Positions 3,742 to 35,653 of a DNA stretch of 45,895 bases are shown here, piece after piece (the stretch's first letter is position 1; the number at the start of each line of letters is the position of its first letter). A program made the translations under genes and the position numbers. Where the stretch lies: assembly GCA_018335335.1 (NCBI GenBank), contig JAGXKG010000013.1, positions 1-45,895 on the forward strand, read 5' to 3'. The stretch comes from Candidatus Thorarchaeota archaeon. GTDB lineage: Archaea > Asgardarchaeota > Thorarchaeia > Thorarchaeales > Thorarchaeaceae. The notes beneath the pieces are model-generated. The model saw nothing but the letters and a program-made list of their open reading frames with translations. It had not been told where the DNA came from and searched no databases.

Positions 3742-4623
3742 CTAGAGAATGAAGAACACGAATATGAGAAGCGCGGCTAATCCTGCAGCCTGAATCGCCC
3801 ATACTCTCTTGTTCCACTTCAATACAGTGGCCCCATCAAATGGTTGAACAGGTATCATGTTGAACAGACCAAGGATGCCGTTCAGCTGTATGCCATATCT
3901 GATGATGAAGCTTACTGGAGTTACAAACATCCCCAGAACTGACAAGAGAATCGCTACTCCTGATAAAATCAAACCCATAACGAAATTCGATAAGGGTCCA
4001 GCCAAATTGGCTTTACCGTGCTGTTTGAGTGTTGCTTTTCCTCTGGTCATGACGGCTCCTGTGCCAAACACTGGGAACCTGAACAAAATGGCCATTGCAG
4101 AGAGTATGTAGCCCTGCGTCGTCATTCGGAATTCACTCCACAGTCCGAAGCTTTGTGCGGTGAATTTGTGTGCCAACTCGTGCACCATGAACGCAGTCAG
4201 AAATAGACCAATGGTTGTCACTGGGTACCACCATAGGGGTGAAAGCAACCAAGCCAACCCACCGATAATAGGTGGATTCCCGGTCAGTGATAAACCAACA
4301 AGAACTACCAACACAGAAGCAATGAGCAAATCCTTGATTTCTCTTTGTGAAAAACGCTTTTGCTTCTTTCTCCTCTTCGGTTGTGATGTTAGTTCGGGAA
4401 GAAGGGAAATTGACAACCCATTGCTTTGGTCGGGTTCTATTTTCCTTGGTGCCTGTGGCCTCATTCGCTTCTCTCGAGCGCGTTCATGGACCTCCTTCAT
4501 TGCCGGGCAATTATGGTTCTCAGGCAGCCTATGATCTGCACAGTACGGCATATTGCAGTATGGGCACGTGAAACAAAGGTCTTCTTTTCCGCAACGAGAG
4601 CAACGAGTCATAGTTGGCTTCAA
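3742..4623 (-). CDS. Membrane zinc metalloprotease of the M50 (site-2 protease) family fused to an N-terminal AN1-type zinc finger.
   Basis: The N-terminus CSRCGKEDLCFTCPYCNMPYCADHRLPENHNC fits the AN1 pattern. It ends in C-x4-C-x2-H-x5-H-x-C with the preceding C-x2-C pairs. After a basic linker come multiple TM helices carrying HELAH (HExxH) and NMIPVQPFDG (the N-x2-P-x4-DG motif of M50 proteases). Confidence 0.75.
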   Translation of the reverse strand: MKPTMTRCSRCGKEDLCFTCPYCNMPYCADHRLPENHNCPAMKEVHERAREKRMRPQAPRKIEPDQSNGLSISLLPELTSQPKRRKKQKRFSQREIKDLLIASVLVVLVGLSLTGNPPIIGGLAWLLSPLWWYPVTTIGLFLTAFMVHELAHKFTAQSFGLWSEFRMTTQGYILSAMAILFRFPVFGTGAVMTRGKATLKQHGKANLAGPLSNFVMGLILSGVAILLSVLGMFVTPVSFIIRYGIQLNGILGLFNMIPVQPFDGATVLKWNKRVWAIQAAGLAALLIFVFFIL

Positions 4624-6161: not shown

Positions 6162-6253
6162 ATGTTTTGGATGTGCTTAAATCGTCCTTCTTTGCTATAT
6201 GATGTATGCTGACCCTTACGTAAATGATGGACAGAATGTACCCTTCTCAACAT

Positions 6254-6311
6254 TTATATATCTAGGGACTACTTGGTACTATAGTAAGAGTTGGTCCCTA
6301 GTTGACCAACT
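6254..6311 (+). promoter_or_regulatory. Candidate promoter and operator of the hsp20-cdc48 unit. A TATA-like box (tttatata, 6254-6261) is followed by two interlocking palindromes: CTAGGGAC(6262-6269)...GTCCCTAG(6294-6301), and AGTTGGTC(6289-6296)-cctagtt-GACCAACT(6304-6311).
   Basis: Perfect 8-bp inverted repeats, read directly. They are positioned where an archaeal TSS or operator would lie, about 25 bp after the TATA. Confidence 0.45.
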
Positions 6312-6329
6312 TGCAAACATGCACAAAAC

Positions 6330-6378
6330 GAAGTCCCATTGGTGACTCTCAGGGCGGCATAAAGCCGCCCGGGACTTC
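6330..6378 (+). other. Predicted stem-loop in the 5' leader of hsp20. It is a nested perfect inverted repeat: gaagtccc(6330-6337)...gggacttc(6371-6378) enclosing gggcggc-ataaa-gccgccc(6352-6370). It sits 22 nt upstream of ATG 6401, and SD GGAGGT is at 6386-6391.
   Basis: Inverted repeats read directly from the sequence. There is no U-tract downstream, so it is unlikely to be a terminator. It may be a leader structure, a possible RNA-thermometer-like or protein-binding element. Confidence 0.4.
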
Positions 6379-6400
6379 ACTGAATGGGAGGTAGGATATT

Positions 6401-6853
6401 ATGACAAATATTGATGATAATTTCGATGAATTTGACGCTCTATTTCGGAAAATGCTTCGCCAGTTCTTCTCTGGTTCGCCTGCGTTTGGCCGTATGATGG
6501 GCGAAACACATAGGATTAGTCCCCAGGCTGAACAGGGAACGACTCCGAGAATGGCTGAATCTGATGAGAAAGAACATCGGATAGAGCGCATTGATCTTGA
6601 TGATAGAGTTATTATTGTAATTGATAATTGTAAGAACAGCGATAATCCTGAAGCTCATATTGAAGGGAGAGAAGTTGAAGTCACACTGGGTGAAGCTGCT
6701 TCGCACGGTCATGAATTCGAGGTTCCATTCGCGGTTGACGTCGAAGAATCAAAGATGACATTCAGAAACGGAGTAGTTGAGATCACCTTAGTCAAATCCG
6801 AGAAGGAAGATGCTTCTTCGGACTTCAATGAAGGACTCCTTAAACCAGAATAG
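6401..6853 (+). CDS. Small heat shock protein of the Hsp20/alpha-crystallin family (atypical).
   Basis: 150 aa. The C-terminal half (EVEVTL...FEVPFAVDVEESKMTFRNGVVEITLVKSEKE) matches the ACD beta-sandwich end motif (F.r.f.LP..vd...a.f.NGVL.i.lpK). The N-terminus is disordered and Phe/Asp-rich. The gene is 18 bp upstream of cdc48, the same arrangement as the Pyrococcus hsp20-AAA+ pair. Confidence 0.6.
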   Translation: MTNIDDNFDEFDALFRKMLRQFFSGSPAFGRMMGETHRISPQAEQGTTPRMAESDEKEHRIERIDLDDRVIIVIDNCKNSDNPEAHIEGREVEVTLGEAASHGHEFEVPFAVDVEESKMTFRNGVVEITLVKSEKEDASSDFNEGLLKPE

Positions 6854-6871
6854 AGGGAGATGTGAGAGAGA

Positions 6872-9058
6872 ATGTCAGAAGATACAGTGAAATTGAAGGT
6901 AGCAGCGGCGATGCCAAAAGACCAAGGCCGCGGTATAGTTAGATTGAACTCCAAAATAAGGCGAGATCTTGGCCTCCGGTCAGGAGACTACGTGCTTATC
7001 AAAGGAAACAAGGAAACGGTTGCTGTGGCTTGGCCAGCCTTGCAAGAAGATGAAGTCCTCGATATGATTCGGATGGACGGTTTGATTCGAAAGAACGCTG
7101 GAGCTAAGCTAGGTGAAGTTATCAAGCTCCAGAAAATCGACCCTCCTGATGCAACGCGAGTTGTATTGGCTCCAAGCCAACCAATTCGTTTCCGCGGTGG
7201 TTTTGAGACCTACCTTAAGAAACAGATTCTCAACAAGCCACTTACGCGTGGAGATGTACTTATGGTTGCATCCATAGGCTCAGGTCTGAAATTCCATGTA
7301 ACTGCGGTATCGCCCAGTAAGCATGTGAAAGTCAACCGTCAGACGAAGGTTGAGATTAGGACTAAGCCGGTTCAGGCAGAAGATACGCAGGTTCCTCAGG
7401 TTACATACGAGGATATTGGCGGCCTTTCCAAGGAATTGCAGAGAATACGAGAAATGGTAGAGCTGCCAATGAAGTCTCCCGACCTTTTCAAGAGGCTCGG
7501 TATTGAGCCGCCAAAGGGAGTTTTCCTCAGAGGACCTCCTGGAACAGGAAAGACGCTCATTGCAAAAGCTGTGGCAAATGAGTCTGGTGCCAATTTCCAA
7601 GCTATCAATGGGCCAGAAATCATGTCCAAGTTCTATGGAGAATCAGAACAGAAGCTTCGCGAAGTATTCGAGGAAGCCGAGAAAAATGCTCCAAGTATCA
7701 TCTTCATCGACGAGATTGACAGTATCGCGCCCAAGCGAGCAGAAGTCACCGGTGAAGTTGAAAGACGAGTTGTTGCTCAGCTCTTGTCACTCATGGATGG
7801 CCTAGAAGGTCGTGGACAAGTGATTGTGATTGGAGCTACGAACCGTCCTGATGATGTTGACGAAGCTTTGAGACGGCCTGGCAGGTTTGACCGAGAAATC
7901 CATATCGGGATACCTGATAGACAAGGTAGACTGGAGATTCTTCAGATTCATACTCGAGGTATGCCCCTAGAAGAGGATCTTGAGTTGGGTCGCCTTGCTG
8001 ATGTCACACACGGCTTTGTTGGAGCTGATTTGGAGTCTCTTGCTAGAGAAGCTGCAATGCACGCTTTGAGACGGGTTCTGCCTCATGTTGACCCAGAAAC
8101 GGGTGACATTCCTGCAGACATCCTGAATGATCTGTACGTTACGCAAGAGGACTTTGAGGCCGCTATGTCCGAGATTTCACCTTCTGCGCTACGTGCGGTC
8201 ATGGTTGAGTCACCAAATGTACAATGGAATGATGTTGGTGGTCTGGACGAGGTAAAGAGCAGGCTAAGAGAAGCTGTTGAAGCCCCACTTAAGCATCCTG
8301 ATGTCTTTGAAGAGATGGGTATTCGCACTCCTAAGGGTGTGCTTCTATTTGGCCCTCCTGGAACTGGTAAGACCCTTCTCGCGAAGGCGGTTGCTACTGA
8401 AAGCGAGGCCAACTTCATTTCTATCAAAGGTCCAGAAATCTTCAACAAGTATGTTGGTGAGTCTGAGAAGGCTGTTCGGGAGATTTTCAAGAAGGCAAGA
8501 CAAACCGCACCGTGTGTACTGTTCTTCGACGAGATTGATGCCGTAATGGGTCATAGGAGCATGCGCGATGAAACTGGTGTGAGTAAGAGGATTGTAAACC
8601 AGTTCCTCGCAGAGCTTGACGGTATGCAGTCACTTCAGAATGTGCTGGTTGTTGGTGCAACAAATCGAGCAGACATCCTTGATCCGGCTGTATTGAGACC
8701 TGGAAGATTCGACTCGGTGGTATATGTTCCTCCACCTGATGAGGATGCAAGAGTTGAGATTTTCGAGGTACATACTAGGGATATGCCATTGACTGAGGAT
8801 GTTGATTTACGAGAACTTGCAAAAATGACTAAAGGATTCTCCGGTGCGGATATCGAAGGTCTCTGCAGAGAAGCGGCAATGACGGCTGTGAGAAAAGACT
8901 GGAAGGCCAAGCCTGTAGAAATGAAGCATTTCAAGAGCGCCATGGATGAGGTTAAGCCAAGTATATCTGCAGAAGACAAGGAACGGTACAAGTCTCAGGC
9001 TGAACGTGTCCTTCGTAGAGCACCAAGCCGCGATAAGCAACTCTCTGGCTACGTCTAA
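6872..9058 (+). CDS. cdc48: Cdc48/VCP/p97-like AAA+ ATPase with two AAA domains and a double-psi-barrel N domain.
   Basis: 728 aa. There are two Walker A motifs (GPPGTGKTL twice), two Walker B motifs (IIFIDEIDS and VLFFDEIDA), and second-region-of-homology arginines. The N domain VKLKVAAAMPKDQGRGIVRLNSKIRRDLGLRSGDYV is typical of the CDC48 N domain. An SD GGGAG precedes the ATG. Confidence 0.93.
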   Translation: MSEDTVKLKVAAAMPKDQGRGIVRLNSKIRRDLGLRSGDYVLIKGNKETVAVAWPALQEDEVLDMIRMDGLIRKNAGAKLGEVIKLQKIDPPDATRVVLAPSQPIRFRGGFETYLKKQILNKPLTRGDVLMVASIGSGLKFHVTAVSPSKHVKVNRQTKVEIRTKPVQAEDTQVPQVTYEDIGGLSKELQRIREMVELPMKSPDLFKRLGIEPPKGVFLRGPPGTGKTLIAKAVANESGANFQAINGPEIMSKFYGESEQKLREVFEEAEKNAPSIIFIDEIDSIAPKRAEVTGEVERRVVAQLLSLMDGLEGRGQVIVIGATNRPDDVDEALRRPGRFDREIHIGIPDRQGRLEILQIHTRGMPLEEDLELGRLADVTHGFVGADLESLAREAAMHALRRVLPHVDPETGDIPADILNDLYVTQEDFEAAMSEISPSALRAVMVESPNVQWNDVGGLDEVKSRLREAVEAPLKHPDVFEEMGIRTPKGVLLFGPPGTGKTLLAKAVATESEANFISIKGPEIFNKYVGESEKAVREIFKKARQTAPCVLFFDEIDAVMGHRSMRDETGVSKRIVNQFLAELDGMQSLQNVLVVGATNRADILDPAVLRPGRFDSVVYVPPPDEDARVEIFEVHTRDMPLTEDVDLRELAKMTKGFSGADIEGLCREAAMTAVRKDWKAKPVEMKHFKSAMDEVKPSISAEDKERYKSQAERVLRRAPSRDKQLSGYV

Positions 9059-9073
9059 AGCCATATTGTAATG

Positions 9074-9110
9074 GGGACGATTTATTTCGTCCCTTGCCTT
9101 TTTCTTTTTA
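9074..9110 (+). terminator. Hairpin gggacga-tttatt-tcgtccc followed by the T-rich tract ttgcctttttcttttta. Likely intrinsic terminator after cdc48.
   Basis: Perfect 7-bp stem (9074-9080 and 9087-9093), then a T-tract at 9094-9110, located 16 nt after the cdc48 stop. Confidence 0.55.
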
Positions 9111-9258: not shown

Positions 9259-11739
9259 GTGGATTCTTCAGAGCGTTCGGTTCTCAATATTTGCCCTTTT
9301 TCGCATTTTGACAATGCTGATGTTGAGACATACGAACACAATATGAGCATGGCAGCTTGGAATCTCAAAGCTGTACTTGATTTCCTAGATCGAGATGACA
9401 AACACCGATTTTGTATCGGCCAAACTACTCTTCTTGAGGGCTTTCAGAAGCTTTTTCCAAACTACTGGGATAAGCTACAGGAACGGATTCTAGAAGGCAG
9501 CTTGGAACTTGTTGGTGGAACATATGTTATGCCCGATTTTGTTTTACCTGATGGAGAATCAATCGCCCGACAATTCGTATTTGGCAAAAGATATGCAAAA
9601 CAGAAACTGGGTGTAGACATACAAACAGGTTGGGCAATCGATTCTGCTGGATTCTGCAGTCAAATTCCACAGATTCTTCGGTTGTCTGGTATAGATTCAC
9701 TGTTTCTATCAAGGGGGATGCCTTATGATGGCCCTAGCGAATTCTCGTTAGTTGCTCCTGATGGAAGCAGAGTATTCGCAATTTGGCTGTCAGAGGGGTA
9801 TGACCTTGCTGCTTGGCTTTCTGAATCGAAACGGGAGGCTTTCTCACAAGTCATGCTTGCTATTGACAAGAAAATGACGCGTAATGTGTCTGGGAATCTG
9901 TTTCTAGCTATGGGGGGCGAGTTGGTGGCGCCTCCGATGCAGCTTTCTGAGGTGATTGAAACCTGGAATGAACTCTTTGGTGATATGAGAAGCACCATTG
10001 TTACTCCCTCGGAGTATGTTGAAAAGATCAAGTCCGTTCAGGCCAAATTGCCCAAGATCCAAGGTCCCTTACTTTCGAATCGCTTTCGCCATGTTGCTTC
10101 TGGAGGCCTGAGTTCCCGGGTTGAGCTGAAGTTGCTTAACCGGAAACTGGAAGGCCTTCTGTATGTAACCGAGATTTGCCTTGCACTTTCAGAAAACCAT
10201 AGCAAAAGCAAAGCCCTTGATAATGAATGGAAAATGCTGTTATTCAATCAGGATCATAACATTATACGCGGAATATGTGGAGACAAACCATATCGAATGG
10301 CTCTGAGAAGATACAACAATGCTATCGAAAAAGCAGATGGTATACTGGAGAATCAGCTACGGACATTAGGGGCCGACCTCGCGACGGATGATGGTGTAGG
10401 GTCGATTTTGGTTGTAAATCCCCTGTCGTGGATTCGAACCGACGTAGCAAGAGTCCGTCTTGGTAATGTTGAATTGAGCGAAAATATCGAAATCATCAAT
10501 CCTGCTGGAGAGGTTGTACCCCACCAAATCGTCGAGGATGATAATGGCCTCGTAGAGGCTGTTTTTATAGCTGAAAATATGCCCAGTACTGGATTCAGAA
10601 TTTATACTATTAGAGAAGAGGTTGAAGAGTCTGAATTTGACAGTCTTCTCGAATGTGGTGACAGCTGGATGGAATCGAACGAGTTTGTACTTAACTTCGA
10701 TGAATACAGCGGATCACTATGTCGACTGTTCGATAAGACCAATGAAGGAGAGGTTTTCAACGGGATGGGCCCCACCATTTCAGTTGAGAACGAAGTTGGC
10801 GATTTATACTCACATCATTCTTCGGAGCTTGCTTCTGAGAAACAGAAGCTGGATTCATCTCGGAATGAGGGTGAGATAAAAATCATCGAAAGCGGGCCAA
10901 TAGCGGCAATTGCTGAAATTCATGGCACGATTTCTGAAAGCCCTTTCAAGCAGCGTGTTACCCTGTACAGATCTATACGAAGAATCGACATAGAGACAAA
11001 GCTCGATTTCAAAGGTATACATAGACGAGTTCGTCTCAGATTCCCGACCCATGTTTATGCCGATGAAGTTACTGTTGGAGCCCAGTTTGGAGTAGAAAAG
11101 AGGCATCTGGAAAACCATGATTTCAGGAGTCGAAGGGAATTAGAGGACTTTCCAGCGCTAGACTGGGTGGATTGTTCAGGCCCTGATTCTGGCATTTGCT
11201 TTTCAAATGTCGGTTTGCATGAGTATAGCTTTCAAGATGGTATTCTAGAAGTAACACTTCTGAGAAGTGTGGACTGGCTTTCTCATGGTAAACATGACAC
11301 TCAGGTGCGGACCCCTCTAGCCAAAGAGGAAGGAATCCATACCTTTCGAGGCTCGATTATTCCGCATGACGGTGACTGGCAAGAAGCTAGAGTCTGGAGA
11401 AGTTCAACCGAGCATCGAATTCCGCTAGTGTGTTCTTTTGTTGACGGCTCGTTAAATCCTAATTCCAAAAGGGAGCTATCATGGCTGAGAGTCGAAGGCT
11501 GTGATTTGTGTCTATCCTGTTTAAGGCCCACTGAGACACCAAACGAGTATGTTCTCAGGTTGTATGAGCCTTGCGGCAATGAGGGAACTTCAGAACTACA
11601 ATTCTATAGGAGACTCAGTAGTATAGAATTGACGGACATCTGCGAAGAGACGATCGGCAGTGTGAGTTTCGAGGGGAATACGGCTGAAATTCATGTCGAT
11701 CCATATACCATACTTACCCTCCGCGTGGAGTTTGCTTGA
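9259..11739 (+). CDS. Glycoside hydrolase family 38 (alpha-mannosidase-like). GTG start.
   Basis: 826 aa. The N-terminal domain carries GH38-like motifs: CPFSHFD (compare PHSHxD), LELVGGTYVMPDFVLPDGESIARQFVFGKRY (compare GRLEFvgGGWVmpDEA..hy...IrQ...G.r) and GWAIDSAGFCSQIPQIL (compare GWqIDpFGhS...P.il, the nucleophile Asp). Confidence 0.68.
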   Translation: MDSSERSVLNICPFSHFDNADVETYEHNMSMAAWNLKAVLDFLDRDDKHRFCIGQTTLLEGFQKLFPNYWDKLQERILEGSLELVGGTYVMPDFVLPDGESIARQFVFGKRYAKQKLGVDIQTGWAIDSAGFCSQIPQILRLSGIDSLFLSRGMPYDGPSEFSLVAPDGSRVFAIWLSEGYDLAAWLSESKREAFSQVMLAIDKKMTRNVSGNLFLAMGGELVAPPMQLSEVIETWNELFGDMRSTIVTPSEYVEKIKSVQAKLPKIQGPLLSNRFRHVASGGLSSRVELKLLNRKLEGLLYVTEICLALSENHSKSKALDNEWKMLLFNQDHNIIRGICGDKPYRMALRRYNNAIEKADGILENQLRTLGADLATDDGVGSILVVNPLSWIRTDVARVRLGNVELSENIEIINPAGEVVPHQIVEDDNGLVEAVFIAENMPSTGFRIYTIREEVEESEFDSLLECGDSWMESNEFVLNFDEYSGSLCRLFDKTNEGEVFNGMGPTISVENEVGDLYSHHSSELASEKQKLDSSRNEGEIKIIESGPIAAIAEIHGTISESPFKQRVTLYRSIRRIDIETKLDFKGIHRRVRLRFPTHVYADEVTVGAQFGVEKRHLENHDFRSRRELEDFPALDWVDCSGPDSGICFSNVGLHEYSFQDGILEVTLLRSVDWLSHGKHDTQVRTPLAKEEGIHTFRGSIIPHDGDWQEARVWRSSTEHRIPLVCSFVDGSLNPNSKRELSWLRVEGCDLCLSCLRPTETPNEYVLRLYEPCGNEGTSELQFYRRLSSIELTDICEETIGSVSFEGNTAEIHVDPYTILTLRVEFA

Positions 11740-11827: not shown

Positions 11828-12685
11828 ATGTCTGACTTCTATCCTATCTCGCCCTTAGTTGGCATCCCGAATAGCTCATATGCCGGCCAGATGGGTGTAT
11901 TGGGAGACTACTGGGCTGTAAGGGTCGTTCGTGGAAAGAAAATCCTTGCTGAGAAGGAAATCCCTGAACTGATGCTAGAGAATGTAGTTGGCGTGATTTA
12001 CGGTCATATTCGGCTTGAGGGGTTGAGTAGGCATACAGTCGCTAGAGCTTCAGGACGATTGATGCAGTTTGCGCGACGATATCAACAGTCTGGTCTGAGT
12101 CCTGATTATGAAGTTCCAGAGCTGATTTATGAAAACGGTTCACAAGTCGGAGTGTCCCAGGCTCAAGAGGAACAGGCTGTGAAAGAGCCAGCTCTTGAGA
12201 GAGTTAACATCGAAACGCTTCCAATTGTTTCTGAGAAAGAACCTGAGAATGAAAACAAGACTATCATAGAAAGCCACGCCTTCATGATTTCTGAAATGGC
12301 TGCCTACGGCAATTCCTTACCGGAAGGCCATCTGGATCTCATGTTCAAACAAGCATCACTGGGAACTGTTCGGGAATGGAAGAACAGAGGGAAGCCTACA
12401 TCTCCAATTACTAAGCTCGCCCATCTTTTCCTTGGATGTTCAAAAGATAGTGCAGTCCAAACTTCAGAGGAAGATAGTCTGGAAATAACGGTCGAGAATT
12501 GCTCTCTCCTACAGGAATCAAACAACTACGAGGCTGTTGAAGGTGTTTTCCCTGCTAGATATCCCTGCGTTTTTCACAAGCTGATTGGAGAACATATGGC
12601 TGAAGTTACAAAATGTGGGATTAACATCGAGCTCCGCGATGACGGTTGCCGTCTTTCAGTGTCGCTAAAAGCACCGCCTGAATAG
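11828..12685 (+). CDS. Hypothetical protein of 285 aa with no recognisable motif.
   Basis: A long ORF with diverse composition, co-oriented 88 bp after the GH38 gene. Antisense ORFs in the region are short. Confidence 0.5.
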   Translation: MSDFYPISPLVGIPNSSYAGQMGVLGDYWAVRVVRGKKILAEKEIPELMLENVVGVIYGHIRLEGLSRHTVARASGRLMQFARRYQQSGLSPDYEVPELIYENGSQVGVSQAQEEQAVKEPALERVNIETLPIVSEKEPENENKTIIESHAFMISEMAAYGNSLPEGHLDLMFKQASLGTVREWKNRGKPTSPITKLAHLFLGCSKDSAVQTSEEDSLEITVENCSLLQESNNYEAVEGVFPARYPCVFHKLIGEHMAEVTKCGINIELRDDGCRLSVSLKAPPE

Positions 12686-16728: not shown

Positions 16729-17151
16729 CTATTTTTCTAAAAGGCGTCCAATTTCCTTGGCATACTTTCGCATCTGAGTTACTGCGAGCCCCATCGAGGT
16801 TATGTCTTTCGCGGAGCCCATGATAAGAAAATCTCCAGCATGCGAGAGGACGACAAAACCATCCCTGCCTCGGACGATGACCTCATATAATTCGTCCAAT
16901 GCTAGTTTATCGGTTGCCATCTCACCCTGCACCAGTAGGGCTGCACTTACAGCCGCCATGAGGTCGGGATCAGCGTCAGATTCTTCTGTTGCGAAATAGG
17001 CTAGTTTCACGCCTTGTTTACTGACTACTGCGATTGCATCCATATCAGCATAGTTGGTGAGTCCCATAAGGAGCTCAACCAGCTCTTCTTCTTTTTCGGG
17101 ATCAAGTTGCGCGGACGTTTTCTTCTCCTCCAAGATATTTTTGAAACTCAC
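16729..17151 (-). CDS. Roadblock/LC7 (MglB-like) domain protein.
   Basis: 140 aa. The pattern AIAVVSKQGVKLAYFATEESDADPDLMAAVSAALLVQGEMA...GFVVLSHAGDFLIMGSAKDITSMGLAVTQMRKYAKEIGRLL fits the Robl_LC7 alpha-beta-beta-alpha-beta-beta topology signature. The apparent GTG start overlaps the stop of the upstream gelsolin gene by 4 bp (GTGA). Confidence 0.78.
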   Translation of the reverse strand: MSFKNILEEKKTSAQLDPEKEEELVELLMGLTNYADMDAIAVVSKQGVKLAYFATEESDADPDLMAAVSAALLVQGEMATDKLALDELYEVIVRGRDGFVVLSHAGDFLIMGSAKDITSMGLAVTQMRKYAKEIGRLLEK

Positions 17152-18095
17152 TTAGCAACGAGTTTCTTTTTTCCTTTCTTACCGCCTGCCTTTTTATTCT
17201 TGGCTGTTTCTTCTTCTACTTCTTCTTGAAAGAAGGTAATCAGATCACCCAGTCTTTCTTTCATCTCTACCTTTATGGGGCTTAGAATGGCGTCCGGTGT
17301 ACCCTTAAGGAGCTCAATTCCCAGTACATTACCATCTTTTACAATAACTCGTGGAATGAATCCTTCTGCCATGAATGTTCCTTCGGGGGGATCCTTCACC
17401 TTCTCAATTTCGTGCTCTATTTTTTCCTTTCCGAAGATTGAAGTCTTCTTCTCAGCCACTGTGTAAAGCTCATTGTATATGATGACCAGTTCGCGTTCGT
17501 AGCCTTCTGGTGGGCTTTGTTCCTTCAATTGTTCAATCATCGATCGGATTTCATCATTTGGTGCTCTTGTTGCTGTTTTGGAAACTGGAGCAGGTTCTTT
17601 AGGTTGGGAGCTGGTCTGTGTTGTGCTTGCTCCGCTGCTAGTTGGAGGCGGTGTTGGTGGTTTCTCATGAGTTCTCTTTTCTGGAACCTTTTTGGGTGGC
17701 GGAGCTGGCTTTGAAGATGGAACCTCCGGTTCTTTCTTCGGTTTCTTTTTTGTTGAGTCCTTCGGTTTCTTCTTGGGTTTTGGAGGTGTTTTTACACCTG
17801 GTTTCTTGACTCTTTTGGCCCCTTCTCCCTCTAAGGCAACGAAGAACGGAGGTGGTTCCTCTCCTTCATCGAGTGGTCTGACACTGAAATGGAAACCATA
17901 TTCACTTCGTAGATTTGTAGCTACTCGCGCACCAATGAATTTCCTTCTTATTCCTGCCTGACTTCCTTTCCAGAGGAAGATGCTCTTGGTTTCACCATCA
18001 ACGACACAGAAGACTTCACCCGAATCCAACGAATCTTTCGTTATTTCATGTTCTTGCAGTGTGCCATCTTCTGAAACTTTGTAACCAGTTACCAT
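17148..18095 (-). CDS. Gelsolin-domain protein: a single N-terminal gelsolin repeat, a Lys/Pro-rich linker, and a ~130-aa C-terminal domain of unknown function. This is the 1DGelX-like architecture described for Thorarchaeota.
   Basis: 315 aa. The N-terminal LDSGEVFCVVDGETKSIFLWKGSQAGIRRKFIGARVATNLRSEYGFHFSVRPLDEGEEPPPFFVALEG matches the gelsolin-repeat signature (hydrophobic strand, D, x, IFxWxG, ..A....A, then EGxEPxxF). The low-complexity linker is KPKKKPKDSTKKKPKKEPEVPSSKPAPPPKK. Confidence 0.7.
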   Translation of the reverse strand: MVTGYKVSEDGTLQEHEITKDSLDSGEVFCVVDGETKSIFLWKGSQAGIRRKFIGARVATNLRSEYGFHFSVRPLDEGEEPPPFFVALEGEGAKRVKKPGVKTPPKPKKKPKDSTKKKPKKEPEVPSSKPAPPPKKVPEKRTHEKPPTPPPTSSGASTTQTSSQPKEPAPVSKTATRAPNDEIRSMIEQLKEQSPPEGYERELVIIYNELYTVAEKKTSIFGKEKIEHEIEKVKDPPEGTFMAEGFIPRVIVKDGNVLGIELLKGTPDAILSPIKVEMKERLGDLITFFQEEVEEETAKNKKAGGKKGKKKLVAK

Positions 18096-33855: not shown

Positions 33856-35484
33856 TTAATCTAGGTCTTCGCCCGCCCCGGGTGCGCCGCCCTGACCCAT
33901 ACCGCCGCCTTTGCTACTGATGACGTCATCGATCTTCAAAAGCATCTGTGCAGCTTCAGAAGCAGACATAACAATCTGTCTATTGACGGCAGCCGACTCA
34001 ATGACACGATTCTTCTTCATGTCATCTATCTTGCTACTGGTGATGTCGACTCCAAAGTGCTTCTTGCCTTCCGAATGTGCGGAACGGAGCTCAACAAGCA
34101 TGTCGATTGGATCGAGTCCAGCGTTCTCAGACAAGGTTGTGGGTACAACCTCTAGAGCATCAGCGAAAGCGTTGACAGCGTATTGCTCTCTGCCTTCAAA
34201 CTTGGATGCTTGTTCACGAAGACTCTGAGCCATTTCACAAGCGAGTGCTCCACCACCATAGGTGACTTTTGGTTCCATGATTACATCACGGACAACGTAG
34301 AGTGCATCATTGAGAGCACGATCTACCTCATCTACGATGTGATCTGTACCGCCGCGCACCATTATTGTAACCGCTGAGGCCTGGGGTGTGCCTTCAACAA
34401 AGAGCATTTTGTCATCAGCGACCTTCCGTTGTTCAACAAGGTCTGCTTCACCCAAGTCATCCTTGGTAAGATTGTTTATCTGTGAAACAATAGTTGCACC
34501 TGTCGCTTTGTGCAGGCGCTCAACATCTGATTTCTTGATTCTCCTGACCGCTAGAATACCGTTCTTCGCCAAGAAGTGTTGTGCGAGGTCATCGATACCT
34601 TTCTGGCAGATAACGACGTTGGCACCAGTCTCTACAATCTTGTTTACCATCGACTTCAGCATATTCTGCTCTTCGTCTAGGAATGATTGCATTGATGTTG
34701 GGTCAGATATAGAAATCTTGGTATCAAATTCAGTCTTAGAGACTTCAAGAGGTGCCTCAAGAAGTGCTATCTTGGCCTTGTCTATTTTCTTGGGCATTCC
34801 GGCATGTACGATTTCCTTGTCAAGAACCAAACCGTTAATCAGCTCAGTGTGGTCGACTTGAAGGCCTTCCTGCTTCTGTCGTGGTATATCCTTTATTGAA
34901 ATGTCTTCACCAGCTTCTTTTCCCTTGCTGATTGCAAGAACTGCATCGACAACAATTTCTGCCAGTGCCTCCTTGGAAGTTGAAACGAACTTGCTTGACA
35001 TGGCAGTTTTTGCTACATCAACGAGAATATCACGATAATTCTCATCTTCTGGGTCGATTTCATCAGCAGTCTTATCAATAATATCTAGTGCATGCTGTGA
35101 GGCTTTCCTATAACCACTAATTATAGTAGTGGCGTGGATTTTCTGATCCAGCAGTTCCTCTGCTTGCTTGAGAAATTCGCCTGTAAGAACTGCTGCTGTG
35201 GTAGTACCATCGCCCACTTCATCGTCCACGGTTCGGGCTACTTCGATAACCATCTTCGCAGCAGGATGGGACACGTCCATCTCTTTGAGGATGGTTGCAC
35301 CGTCATTGCTAACGGTAATGTCGCCAAATCCATCTACAAGCATCTTGTCCATACCTTTTGGACCCAAGGCAGACCTAACTGACTCGGCAATTACCTTTGC
35401 CGCCATGATGTTGTTTCTCTGGGCATCACGGCCCCTACGTCTCTCGGTATCCTCTCGTAATACGATAATCGGTTGTTGACTCAT
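33856..35484 (-). CDS. Thermosome subunit (group II chaperonin, CCT/TCP-1 family).
   Basis: The N-terminus [22 protein letters not shown] is typical. The ATP-binding GDGTTT motif is present. The C-terminal [12 protein letters not shown] is a GGM-type tail. The start was moved to the internal ATG 35484 with GGAGG 7 nt upstream (the track ORF starts at 35529). Confidence 0.93.
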
Positions 35485-35653
35485 CCTTATTCCTCCAGTT
35501 TCATTCTTAGCCTTATTTTGGTAAAACAAAACTGTACATGCGCTTCGTCGAAGATATCCATTTAAGCATTACTTTGTGAACACATTAACTTCGATTTCAA
35601 ACCCAATAAAAAGCCTTCTCTCAGCCACATTCTCTCCGAATCTTTCTAAAATT

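Follow-up and report, generated by a model that had tools for sequence, protein, structure and literature searches.

Genes for a small heat-shock protein (sHsp) and an AAA+ ATPase are included in both the Phr and the HSR1 regulons of Euryarchaeota, with the thermosome outside (PMC10653856), and in Pyrococcus furiosus HSP20 and VAT1 are adjacent, each with its own transcription start site (TSS) and Phr site (PMC10746257). We analyzed a comparable gene pair in a 45.9-kb stretch of DNA (hereafter the window) from a metagenome-assembled genome of Candidatus Thorarchaeota, in which an open reading frame (ORF) for a 150-aa divergent sHsp is followed by cdc48 and preceded by operator-like boxes and by a leader with a conserved hairpin, called P2. 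The gene pairing is a known theme, and the box and the P2 RNA are undescribed. We consider it somewhat probable that the locus is a two-gene proteostasis operon together with its control region, conserved throughout Thorarchaeota, with an operator-controlled promoter and a leader RNA that binds a protein or sets mRNA stability. The following features were identified, with positions counted from the first letter of the window:

6244..6253, plus strand: element resembling a transcription factor B recognition element (BRE), TTCTCAACAT, reading TTCnCAAnnC in relatives; it abuts the TATA box, and conservation begins here
6253..6261, plus strand: TATA box TTTATATAT (TTTATATA/TTATATAT); every orthologous locus has TTATATA or TTAAATA in the corresponding position
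6262..6270, minus strand: box 1, AGTCCCTAG (CTAGGGACT on the plus strand), between the TATA box and the predicted TSS
6283..6285, plus strand: predicted TSS within TATAGTAAG (CTAGTGAAC in relatives), placed by inference about 30 nt downstream of the first base of the TATA 8-mer
6289..6311, plus strand: P1, a 5'-proximal hairpin, AGUUGGUC-CCUAGUU-GACCAACU, that includes box 2
6293..6301, plus strand: box 2, GGTCCCTAG, at about +10 of the predicted transcript
6320..6329, plus strand: single-stranded linker with a conserved ACA(G/A)AA just 5' of P2
6330..6378, plus strand: P2, a 49-nt conserved hairpin identified by a covariance model and covariation
6386..6392, plus strand: Shine-Dalgarno (SD) sequence GGGAGGU of the small ORF (GGAGG at 6387-6391), located 7 nt 3' of P2 and 8 nt 5' of the ATG
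6401..6853, plus strand: ORF of the divergent sHsp (Hsp20/alpha-crystallin-domain), 150 aa, with an N-terminal helix, a disordered linker and a C-terminal alpha-crystallin domain (ACD)
6872..9058, plus strand: Cdc48/VAT-type AAA+ ATPase, 728 aa, with CDC48_N, CDC48_2 and two AAA domains with lid domains
9073..9110, plus strand: terminator-like hairpin GGGGACGATTTATTTCGTCCC followed by a T-run

The locus resembles the Phr (Pyrococcus/Thermococcus) and HSR1 (Archaeoglobus) systems in that the same two gene functions are adjacent, an archaeal TATA promoter carries a conserved operator-like element at its TSS or close to it, and the thermosome is not in the set, its promoter lacking the boxes here. 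It differs in the element itself, which is the GGTCCCTAG box, often in direct repeats, instead of an A/T-rich palindrome; in having one promoter and an 18-nt gap where P. furiosus has separate TSSs and Phr sites; and in its long structured leader.

Orthologous loci were reached by three routes. Cdc48 look-ups yielded L003-L012, and a pattern for the P2 core in GTDB genomes yielded at least 11 usable archaeal loci among the matches listed, all of them orthologous sites; the listed matches were mostly chance matches in high-GC bacteria, and rare paralogous copies may exist. A promoter-only pattern in JGI metagenomes gave 13 orthologous loci, and a distant family member, L150, was added. Genomic contigs of the clade originated from SRR25621648, SRR25621645, SRR12689834 and JGI 3300037504. 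Together, about 30 orthologous loci from roughly 12 lineages were compared, and all shared one architecture comprising the BRE-like TTCnCAAnnC, the TATA box, the box or boxes, P1, the ACA(G/A)AA linker, P2, GGAGG, and the start codon. The window was compared with L001, the nearest different species, whose small protein is 67% identical. Nucleotide identity rose from 46.5% ahead of the BRE to 88% over the stretch between the BRE and the ATG, vs about 50% for neutral sites; the small ORF had 74%, and the third codon positions of cdc48 had 57%. Substitutions were located in the P2 loop (ATAAA vs GCAAT) and between P2 and the SD, with the stems unchanged. Judged from this alignment, purifying selection is strong on the TATA box and on the sequence that follows it.

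The predicted leader of the window is about 117 nt long and folds better than its shuffles (z = -4.56). A 49-nt nested hairpin ending 22 nt before the ATG at 6401, upstream of the SD, had been reported by an initial annotation made from the window sequence, and the comparison now identifies it as a conserved RNA structure with covariation. P2 has an outer stem (6330-6337/6371-6378) with the arms GAAGTCCC/GGGACTTC, an inner stem (6352-6358/6364-6370) of GGGCGGC/GCCGCCC closed by a variable loop (6359-6363, ATAAA), and a 5' internal loop (6338-6351) carrying GUGACUC at 6342-6348. This heptamer was invariant in every sequence and extended to GGUGACUC (6341-6348) in all but two lineages. In the orthologs, GGAGG follows 4-10 nt after P2. 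Paired bases were found in 91-93% of P2 cells (91% on 27 distinct sequences) vs 32-66% with slid partner columns; most of the cells scored as unpaired were register errors of the automatic alignment, and single-sequence folds agreed in every lineage. Across the 27 sequences, 7 pairs had changed on both sides (21 cells), and the covariation score of 0.149, vs 0.087 in shuffles, was reached by 0 of 500 of them. The outer stem varied from GAAGUCCC/GGGACUUC to GAAGCCCC/GGGGCUUC, GAGGCCC/GGGCCUC and GAAGCCCA/UGGGCUUC, and the inner stem from GGGCGGC/GCCGCCC to GGGCGGU/ACCGCCC, GGGCGGG/CCCGCCC and GGGCAGC/GCUGCCC. G·U pairs occurred on the sense strand, with one position showing 16 GU vs 11 AU in the 27 sequences; the terminal loop ranged from 3 to 7 nt, and an internal loop of 11-17 nt was present on the 5' side only. 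Because of these G·U pairs, the variable loop, the one-sided internal loop and the pairing-preserving changes, we interpret P2 as a structure of the sense-strand RNA rather than a DNA palindrome. It must also be transcribed, since the GC-rich stretch between it and the ATG, at 16-25 nt, is too short for a TATA box or promoter to fit. Same position in all loci, compensatory change and strand-specific G·U pairing, the marks of a conserved cis-regulatory RNA, were all found in P2.

A covariance model built on 18 leaders gave one match per orthologous locus, at 50-80 bits, and no further match in 268 kb including the whole window. The model identified L150 at 50.8 bits, where the small protein is only 29% identical, and gave no match at sHsp genes without an adjacent cdc48. 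Among the more distant sHsp relatives, L149 is not next to cdc48 and L151 is a canonical Hsp20, and P2 was absent from both. As an unbiased check, GTGACTC was present in 13 of the 13 loci obtained by the promoter pattern alone, and it was also present in loci found via Cdc48 and via the small protein. No Rfam (15) family matched at gathering thresholds in the whole window; in E-value mode the best hit at 6230-6420 was PtaRNA1, on the wrong strand and with 19.4 bits vs a gathering score of 47. Inside the internal loop, GG/UC and the flanking bases could form a mini-helix around a UGAC loop in many clades, with the flanking pair covarying (AU 11, CG 5) and unpaired in several lineages. The hairpin containing box 2 (P1) was kept in most clades in differing registers and lengths when the fold was computed for each ortholog.

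Leader structures that bind proteins, such as ribosomal-protein leaders and the L7Ae k-turn leader, autoregulate archaeal and bacterial operons. P2 is like them in being a compact covarying hairpin with an invariant internal loop, placed just upstream of the SD and confined to one operon. It differs from them in having no recognizable k-turn or rRNA-mimic features, and the operon encodes a chaperone and an unfoldase, not RNA-binding proteins. Two motif assignments for P2 were rejected: a k-turn or bulge-helix-bulge, judged by eye, as no unpaired GA is present on the 3' strand and only one side has bulges, and a loop pseudoknot with GAGUCA in the coding start, which on reading the sequences was seen in one clade only. 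The leader of the window also contains an upstream ORF (uORF; 6319-6345, with ATG at 6319 and TGA at 6343-6345) encoding MHKTKSHW, whose stop is the UGA of the invariant GGUGA. In-frame equivalents of 5 or 8 codons were identified in several clades, and an AUG-UGA start-stop in L008; as a general feature the uORF was rejected because it is absent in 13 of 28 leaders.

Upstream of the leader, a TATA-like box had been noted before the sHsp-like gene; it is present at 6253-6261 and conserved in all orthologous loci, and applying the usual archaeal TATA-TSS spacing to the alignment places the TSS at about 6283-6285. The 2 boxes flank this predicted TSS. In most clades, TGGTCCCTAG occurs twice as direct repeats 24-26 nt apart, with the first copy abutting the TATA box. 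In the window, L008 and L009, the three clades in which the distance was measured, box 2 lies 39-41 nt downstream of the TATA start, and box position relative to TATA was conserved even where the small protein is only about 30% identical. In the clade of the window box 1 is inverted, which creates the palindrome CTAGGGAC...GTCCCTAG. Other departures from the common layout include a degenerate box 1 in L008 and L010, a single TGGTATC(C/T)TAGG box with a duplicated TATA-like element and a shorter leader in L040, L070, L085 and L118, and two TACCA-N2-TGGTA palindromes in place of the GGTCCCTAG boxes in L011 (2410-2460). P2 was unchanged in these last two groups, where the boxes are replaced, and the RNA element appears to change more slowly than the operator. 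Both boxes of L150 share one change, CCCTAG to CCTTAG, which suggests a single factor reading both.

Two interlocking palindromes had been described as a putative operator. Their letters are present in the window, where the exact motifs occur at a single location: CTAGGGAC (6262-6269) and GTCCCTAG (6294-6301) are the ends of an imperfect 40-bp palindrome (6262-6301, 75% complementary), and AGTTGGTC (6289-6296) is followed after a 7-nt spacer by GACCAACT (6304-6311). Perfect 8-bp inverted repeats with spacers of 3-40 nt numbered 37 in the window vs 33 +/- 8 in first-order Markov simulations. Palindrome counts were rejected as evidence, being at chance frequency, and the case for a function of the boxes rests therefore on their conservation in orthologs. 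In orthologous promoters the box was conserved, whereas the inverted layout and AGTTGGTC-n7-GACCAACT proved clade-specific. The latter is imperfect in L001 (AATTGGTC...GACCAAAT) and absent in other clades, and is a clade-specific long form of the variable 5' hairpin P1.

The palindromes had been suggested to be a distinct, undescribed stress operator. Further sites that would point to a stress regulon were not found: the boxes were shared by no other gene of the window, by none in the approximately 275 kb of Thorarchaeota DNA (where GTCCCTAG had a single stray copy), by the thermosome promoter no more than by the others, and by no other gene in the metagenome-wide two-box scan. The single GTCCCTAG outside this promoter compares with about 8 expected in the 275 kb, a depletion that may reflect general CTAG avoidance, and the box "regulon" may be a single operon. 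Candidate extra sites in L134, L136 and L142 were judged unrelated, as their GGTCCCTAG belongs to a 24-nt tandem repeat in DNA that is poor in ORFs and lacks P2. In these JGI metagenome contigs, a unit of approximately 24 nt, ATCnGGTCCCTAGAATCAnAnAAA, occurs in 3-4 tandem copies (L134, 81-160; L136, 1560-1660; L142, 297-380); they have no sHsp gene, and the shared 9-mer box is probably a coincidence. The thermosome (Cpn60/TCP-1) gene of the window (33856-35529, minus strand) has a promoter at about 35530-35600 with a similar BRE-like TTCACAAAG, a CTTAAATG box and then a CTTCGACGAAG palindrome; neither a GGTCCCTAG box nor P2 was found in it.

The first protein of the operon had been called sHsp-like. 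The window protein itself had no Pfam match at E<0.01 (best DUF7127 at 0.032 and CS at 0.15) and so no significant HSP20 match, whereas its family, with 53 representatives among 1.84 billion, and its predicted fold both pointed to Hsp20/ACD proteins. PF00011 (HSP20) was matched by 9 of 49 family members (best 2.9e-6), and the family profile matched the solved sHsps Hsp20.1 of S. solfataricus (4rzk, E 2.4e-11) and MjHsp16.5 (E 8.9e-7). The AlphaFold2 model had pLDDT >88 over residues 61-150, and these were predicted to form the beta-sandwich ACD that characterizes sHsps; the top Foldseek match in the PDB was the ACD of S. solfataricus Hsp20.1 (E 1.6e-4, TM 0.67), followed by many sHsps, with CS domains, which share the superfold, also in the list. 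An N-terminal helix (MIDDDF... in relatives) and a C-terminal tail, (E)G-x-L-(K/R)-x, modelled as a strand, were conserved in the family. By profile and predicted fold, the 150-aa protein is a divergent lineage of the Hsp20/ACD superfamily.

The 728-aa protein is a canonical, true Cdc48. It matched PF02359 (5e-25), PF02933 (8e-15), PF00004 twice (8e-97) and PF17862 twice, which gives the order of Cdc48/p97/VAT proteins, namely, CDC48_N and CDC48_2 followed by two AAA+ modules with lids, and it was 75-99% identical to Thorarchaeota proteins annotated as CDC48 family ATPases. The initial annotation had placed the sHsp-like gene 18 bp upstream of cdc48 on the same strand, and these coordinates agree with ours. 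The pair was linked in every relative examined, tightly throughout, with gaps of 12-22 nt, and the gene order FAD-oxidoreductase, sHsp-like, cdc48 and (mostly) GH38 was retained in most relatives. Because the sHsp-Cdc48 pairing spans the whole class, the evidence suggests that the divergent sHsp serves Cdc48 as a partner or delivers substrates to it. A hairpin with a T-tract after cdc48, previously noted as a clean terminator, is present at 9073-9110 and was kept in relatives with different stem sequences. Overall, every sequence feature listed in the initial annotation was present as placed, and its interpretation was only partly supported.

We propose that a dedicated DNA-binding regulator would use the boxes as its operator. 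Recruitment of RNA polymerase is blocked by archaeal repressors that bind between the TATA box and the TSS, and because box 1 lies there, the regulator would most simply, and probably, be a repressor acting in this way. On the transcript, P2 would be a site specific in sequence and shape for a protein or other trans factor, setting translation of the operon or stability of its mRNA, and P1 may protect the 5' end. The sHsp-like gene and cdc48 would be co-transcribed, given the 12-22 nt gap in every relative, with transcription ending at the hairpin and T-run after cdc48. Stress or heat inducibility of the operon may be supposed only from the analogy to euryarchaeal hsp20 and AAA+ genes under Phr/HSR1 control.

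Several other explanations of the leader and promoter were weighed. The initial annotation had proposed that the hairpin could be an RNA-thermometer-like or protein-binding element. A thermometer would melt on heat shock and free the ribosome-binding site of the sHsp gene in the manner of ROSE, fourU or Synechocystis hsp17. P2 does lie in the structured 5' leader of an sHsp-like gene close to the SD, an alternative fold restricted to the clade of the window joins UCCC of P2 to GGGA of the SD, and the hsp17 thermosensor in the 5' untranslated region has a comparable form, one hairpin with an asymmetric internal loop (PMC3074152). Thermometers hold the SD or start codon in a marginally stable helix, whereas the conserved P2 structure excludes both the SD, which is 4-10 nt outside the helix, and the AUG, and its 15 mostly G-C pairs (-26.8 kcal/mol at 37 °C) are predicted to remain folded at 80 °C. 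The predicted probability of an unpaired SD was flat, at 0.47-0.52 from 20 to 90 °C, contradicting the proposal; the SD-pairing fold was not conserved in other clades, no Rfam thermometer matched, and a melting device needs no invariant loop of 7-8 nt. We consider a thermometer very improbable. The inverted repeats of P2 could instead be a DNA operator for a dimeric factor downstream of the TSS, comparable to CIRCE/HrcA or HAIR/HspR, as those too are inverted repeats lying between promoter and start codon in chaperone operons, the sequence of the arms GGGCGG/CCGCCC is highly conserved, and CIRCE acts both as DNA and as mRNA, affecting mRNA stability. Constant spacing and symmetric half-sites were not found in P2, however: the inner arms are spaced by a loop of 3-7 nt, the outer arms are separated asymmetrically by an insertion of 11-17 nt on one side, and changes are compensatory rather than sequence-preserving, with the G·U pairs (16 of 27 at one position) amounting to mismatched half-sites in DNA and to C·A on the other strand. 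The sequence is also unrelated to these bacterial elements and the host is archaeal, and a DNA operator at P2 seems improbable to us.

More weight, although still on the unlikely side, is given to a purely structural role, in which P1 and P2 would shield the long-lived operon mRNA against 5'-end-dependent decay or define a processing site, with no dedicated trans factor and no signal-dependent regulation. Both hairpins are stable, a hairpin of some kind persists at P1, a few nt from the predicted 5' end, while its register shifts, and 5' stem-loops are known to stabilize prokaryotic mRNAs. The invariant GUGACUC and the near-invariant stems would be superfluous for this role, yet they are kept where the small protein is about 30% identical, and the conserved, untranscribed box 1 would be left unexplained. 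The GGUGA of the P2 loop might otherwise serve as an SD-like standby site, enhancer or decoy, presented on a rigid scaffold for sHsp translation: genes of this genome use GGTGA as a variant SD (6 of 35 upstream regions vs 5 with GGAGG), and the true SD follows the loop at a distance of 40-50 nt. Complementarity to the usual archaeal anti-SD is limited to 5 nt, whereas the conserved block extends to GGUGACUC; GG/UC is predicted to be paired in the mini-helix in many clades, with its flanking pair covarying; no start codon follows GGUGA, and a uORF ending at its UGA is absent from nearly half of the leaders (13 of 28). This role is doubtful, to about the same degree as a DNA operator. The explanation we find least credible is a diverged Phr/HSR1-type heat-shock promoter of the euryarchaeal system. 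The kind of gene pair (sHsp and Cdc48/VAT AAA+ ATPase) and the operator position near the TSS are similar. A Phr-type palindrome (up to 3 mismatches) was not found at 6200-6400, neither at the TSS nor elsewhere near the promoter, and had 10 matches in the window vs 17 expected, in agreement with the earlier remark that the operator differs from that consensus. The conserved box GGTCCCTAG is unrelated in sequence, and the P. furiosus genes each have their own TSS and Phr site (PMC10746257), as opposed to the 18-nt gap here.

Several points weigh against the operator-controlled operon with a factor-binding leader that we prefer. No helix-turn-helix regulator was seen among the scanned ORFs of the window, and no regulator gene of any type was recognized in the conserved neighborhood. 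A second box site was found neither in the window nor in the 275 kb (the stray GTCCCTAG apart), and the metagenome-wide scan for the two-box promoter returned no other gene, only the 13 orthologous sites and the 3 tandem-repeat contigs. The arrangement of the boxes varies between clades, which is unusual for a rigid dimeric operator, and the TSS is placed from spacing alone. P2 is largely invariant rather than covarying, its sequences are related, about half of them were obtained with patterns fixing part of the motif, and no known RNA-binding motif (k-turn or bulge-helix-bulge) fits in a by-eye comparison; the function given to P2 is a guess. A bolder version, which we put forward tentatively and regard as possible but clearly less probable than the operon reading itself, is that P2 with its GUGACUC loop forms a new, Thorarchaeota-specific class of cis-regulatory RNA that senses a protein or small ligand, alongside a dedicated GGTCCCTAG-box regulator. 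The sensed signal would then be, for example, the products of the operon or the load of unfolded protein, tuning synthesis of sHsp and Cdc48. If true, this would be the first defined stress/proteostasis control circuit in Asgard archaea, and one unrelated to Phr.

Cdc48/p97 is a central proteostasis machine of eukaryotes, and the locus offers a first handle on the control of protein quality-control genes in Thorarchaeota, which are Asgard archaea. It provides two compact handles, a DNA box of 9-10 bp that is almost unique in the sampled genomes and an RNA of about 50 nt with an invariant loop, which could serve as bait for the regulator or as metatranscriptome markers; P2 is in addition a candidate for a new Rfam family.

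We also identified several genes around the pair. A glycoside hydrolase family 38 (GH38) alpha-mannosidase-like gene (9259-11739, plus strand) is located 3' of cdc48 and is followed by a gene for a 285-aa protein without a Pfam match (11828-12685, plus strand); most relatives keep this order. L001 and L011 have no GH38 gene, and there a protein of the 285-aa type comes directly after cdc48. No tRNA or known RNA families were found across the window. A Roadblock/LC7-domain protein (16729-17151, minus strand) adjoins a 315-aa ORF without a Pfam match (17148-18095), and a Robl_LC7 gene was also close to the operon in L150. An ENA contig of 3.7 kb (P0009), which ranked among the top Cdc48 matches, encodes a 1007-aa Cdc48-like protein with extra domains and 58% identity over 95% of the query, which may be a fusion or a gene-calling artefact. 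Upstream of the pair and divergent from it, an M50 (site-2-type) membrane peptidase with an N-terminal AN1 zinc finger is encoded at 3742-4623 (minus strand), and such a zf-AN1/M50 peptidase was identified near sHsp-cdc48 in most relatives (L001, L003, L007, L008, L010, L011 and L150). Eukaryotic AN1 zinc-finger proteins are stress factors associated with Cdc48/p97 and the proteasome, and because of this association the proximity of the peptidase gene to the operon could reflect a functional link.

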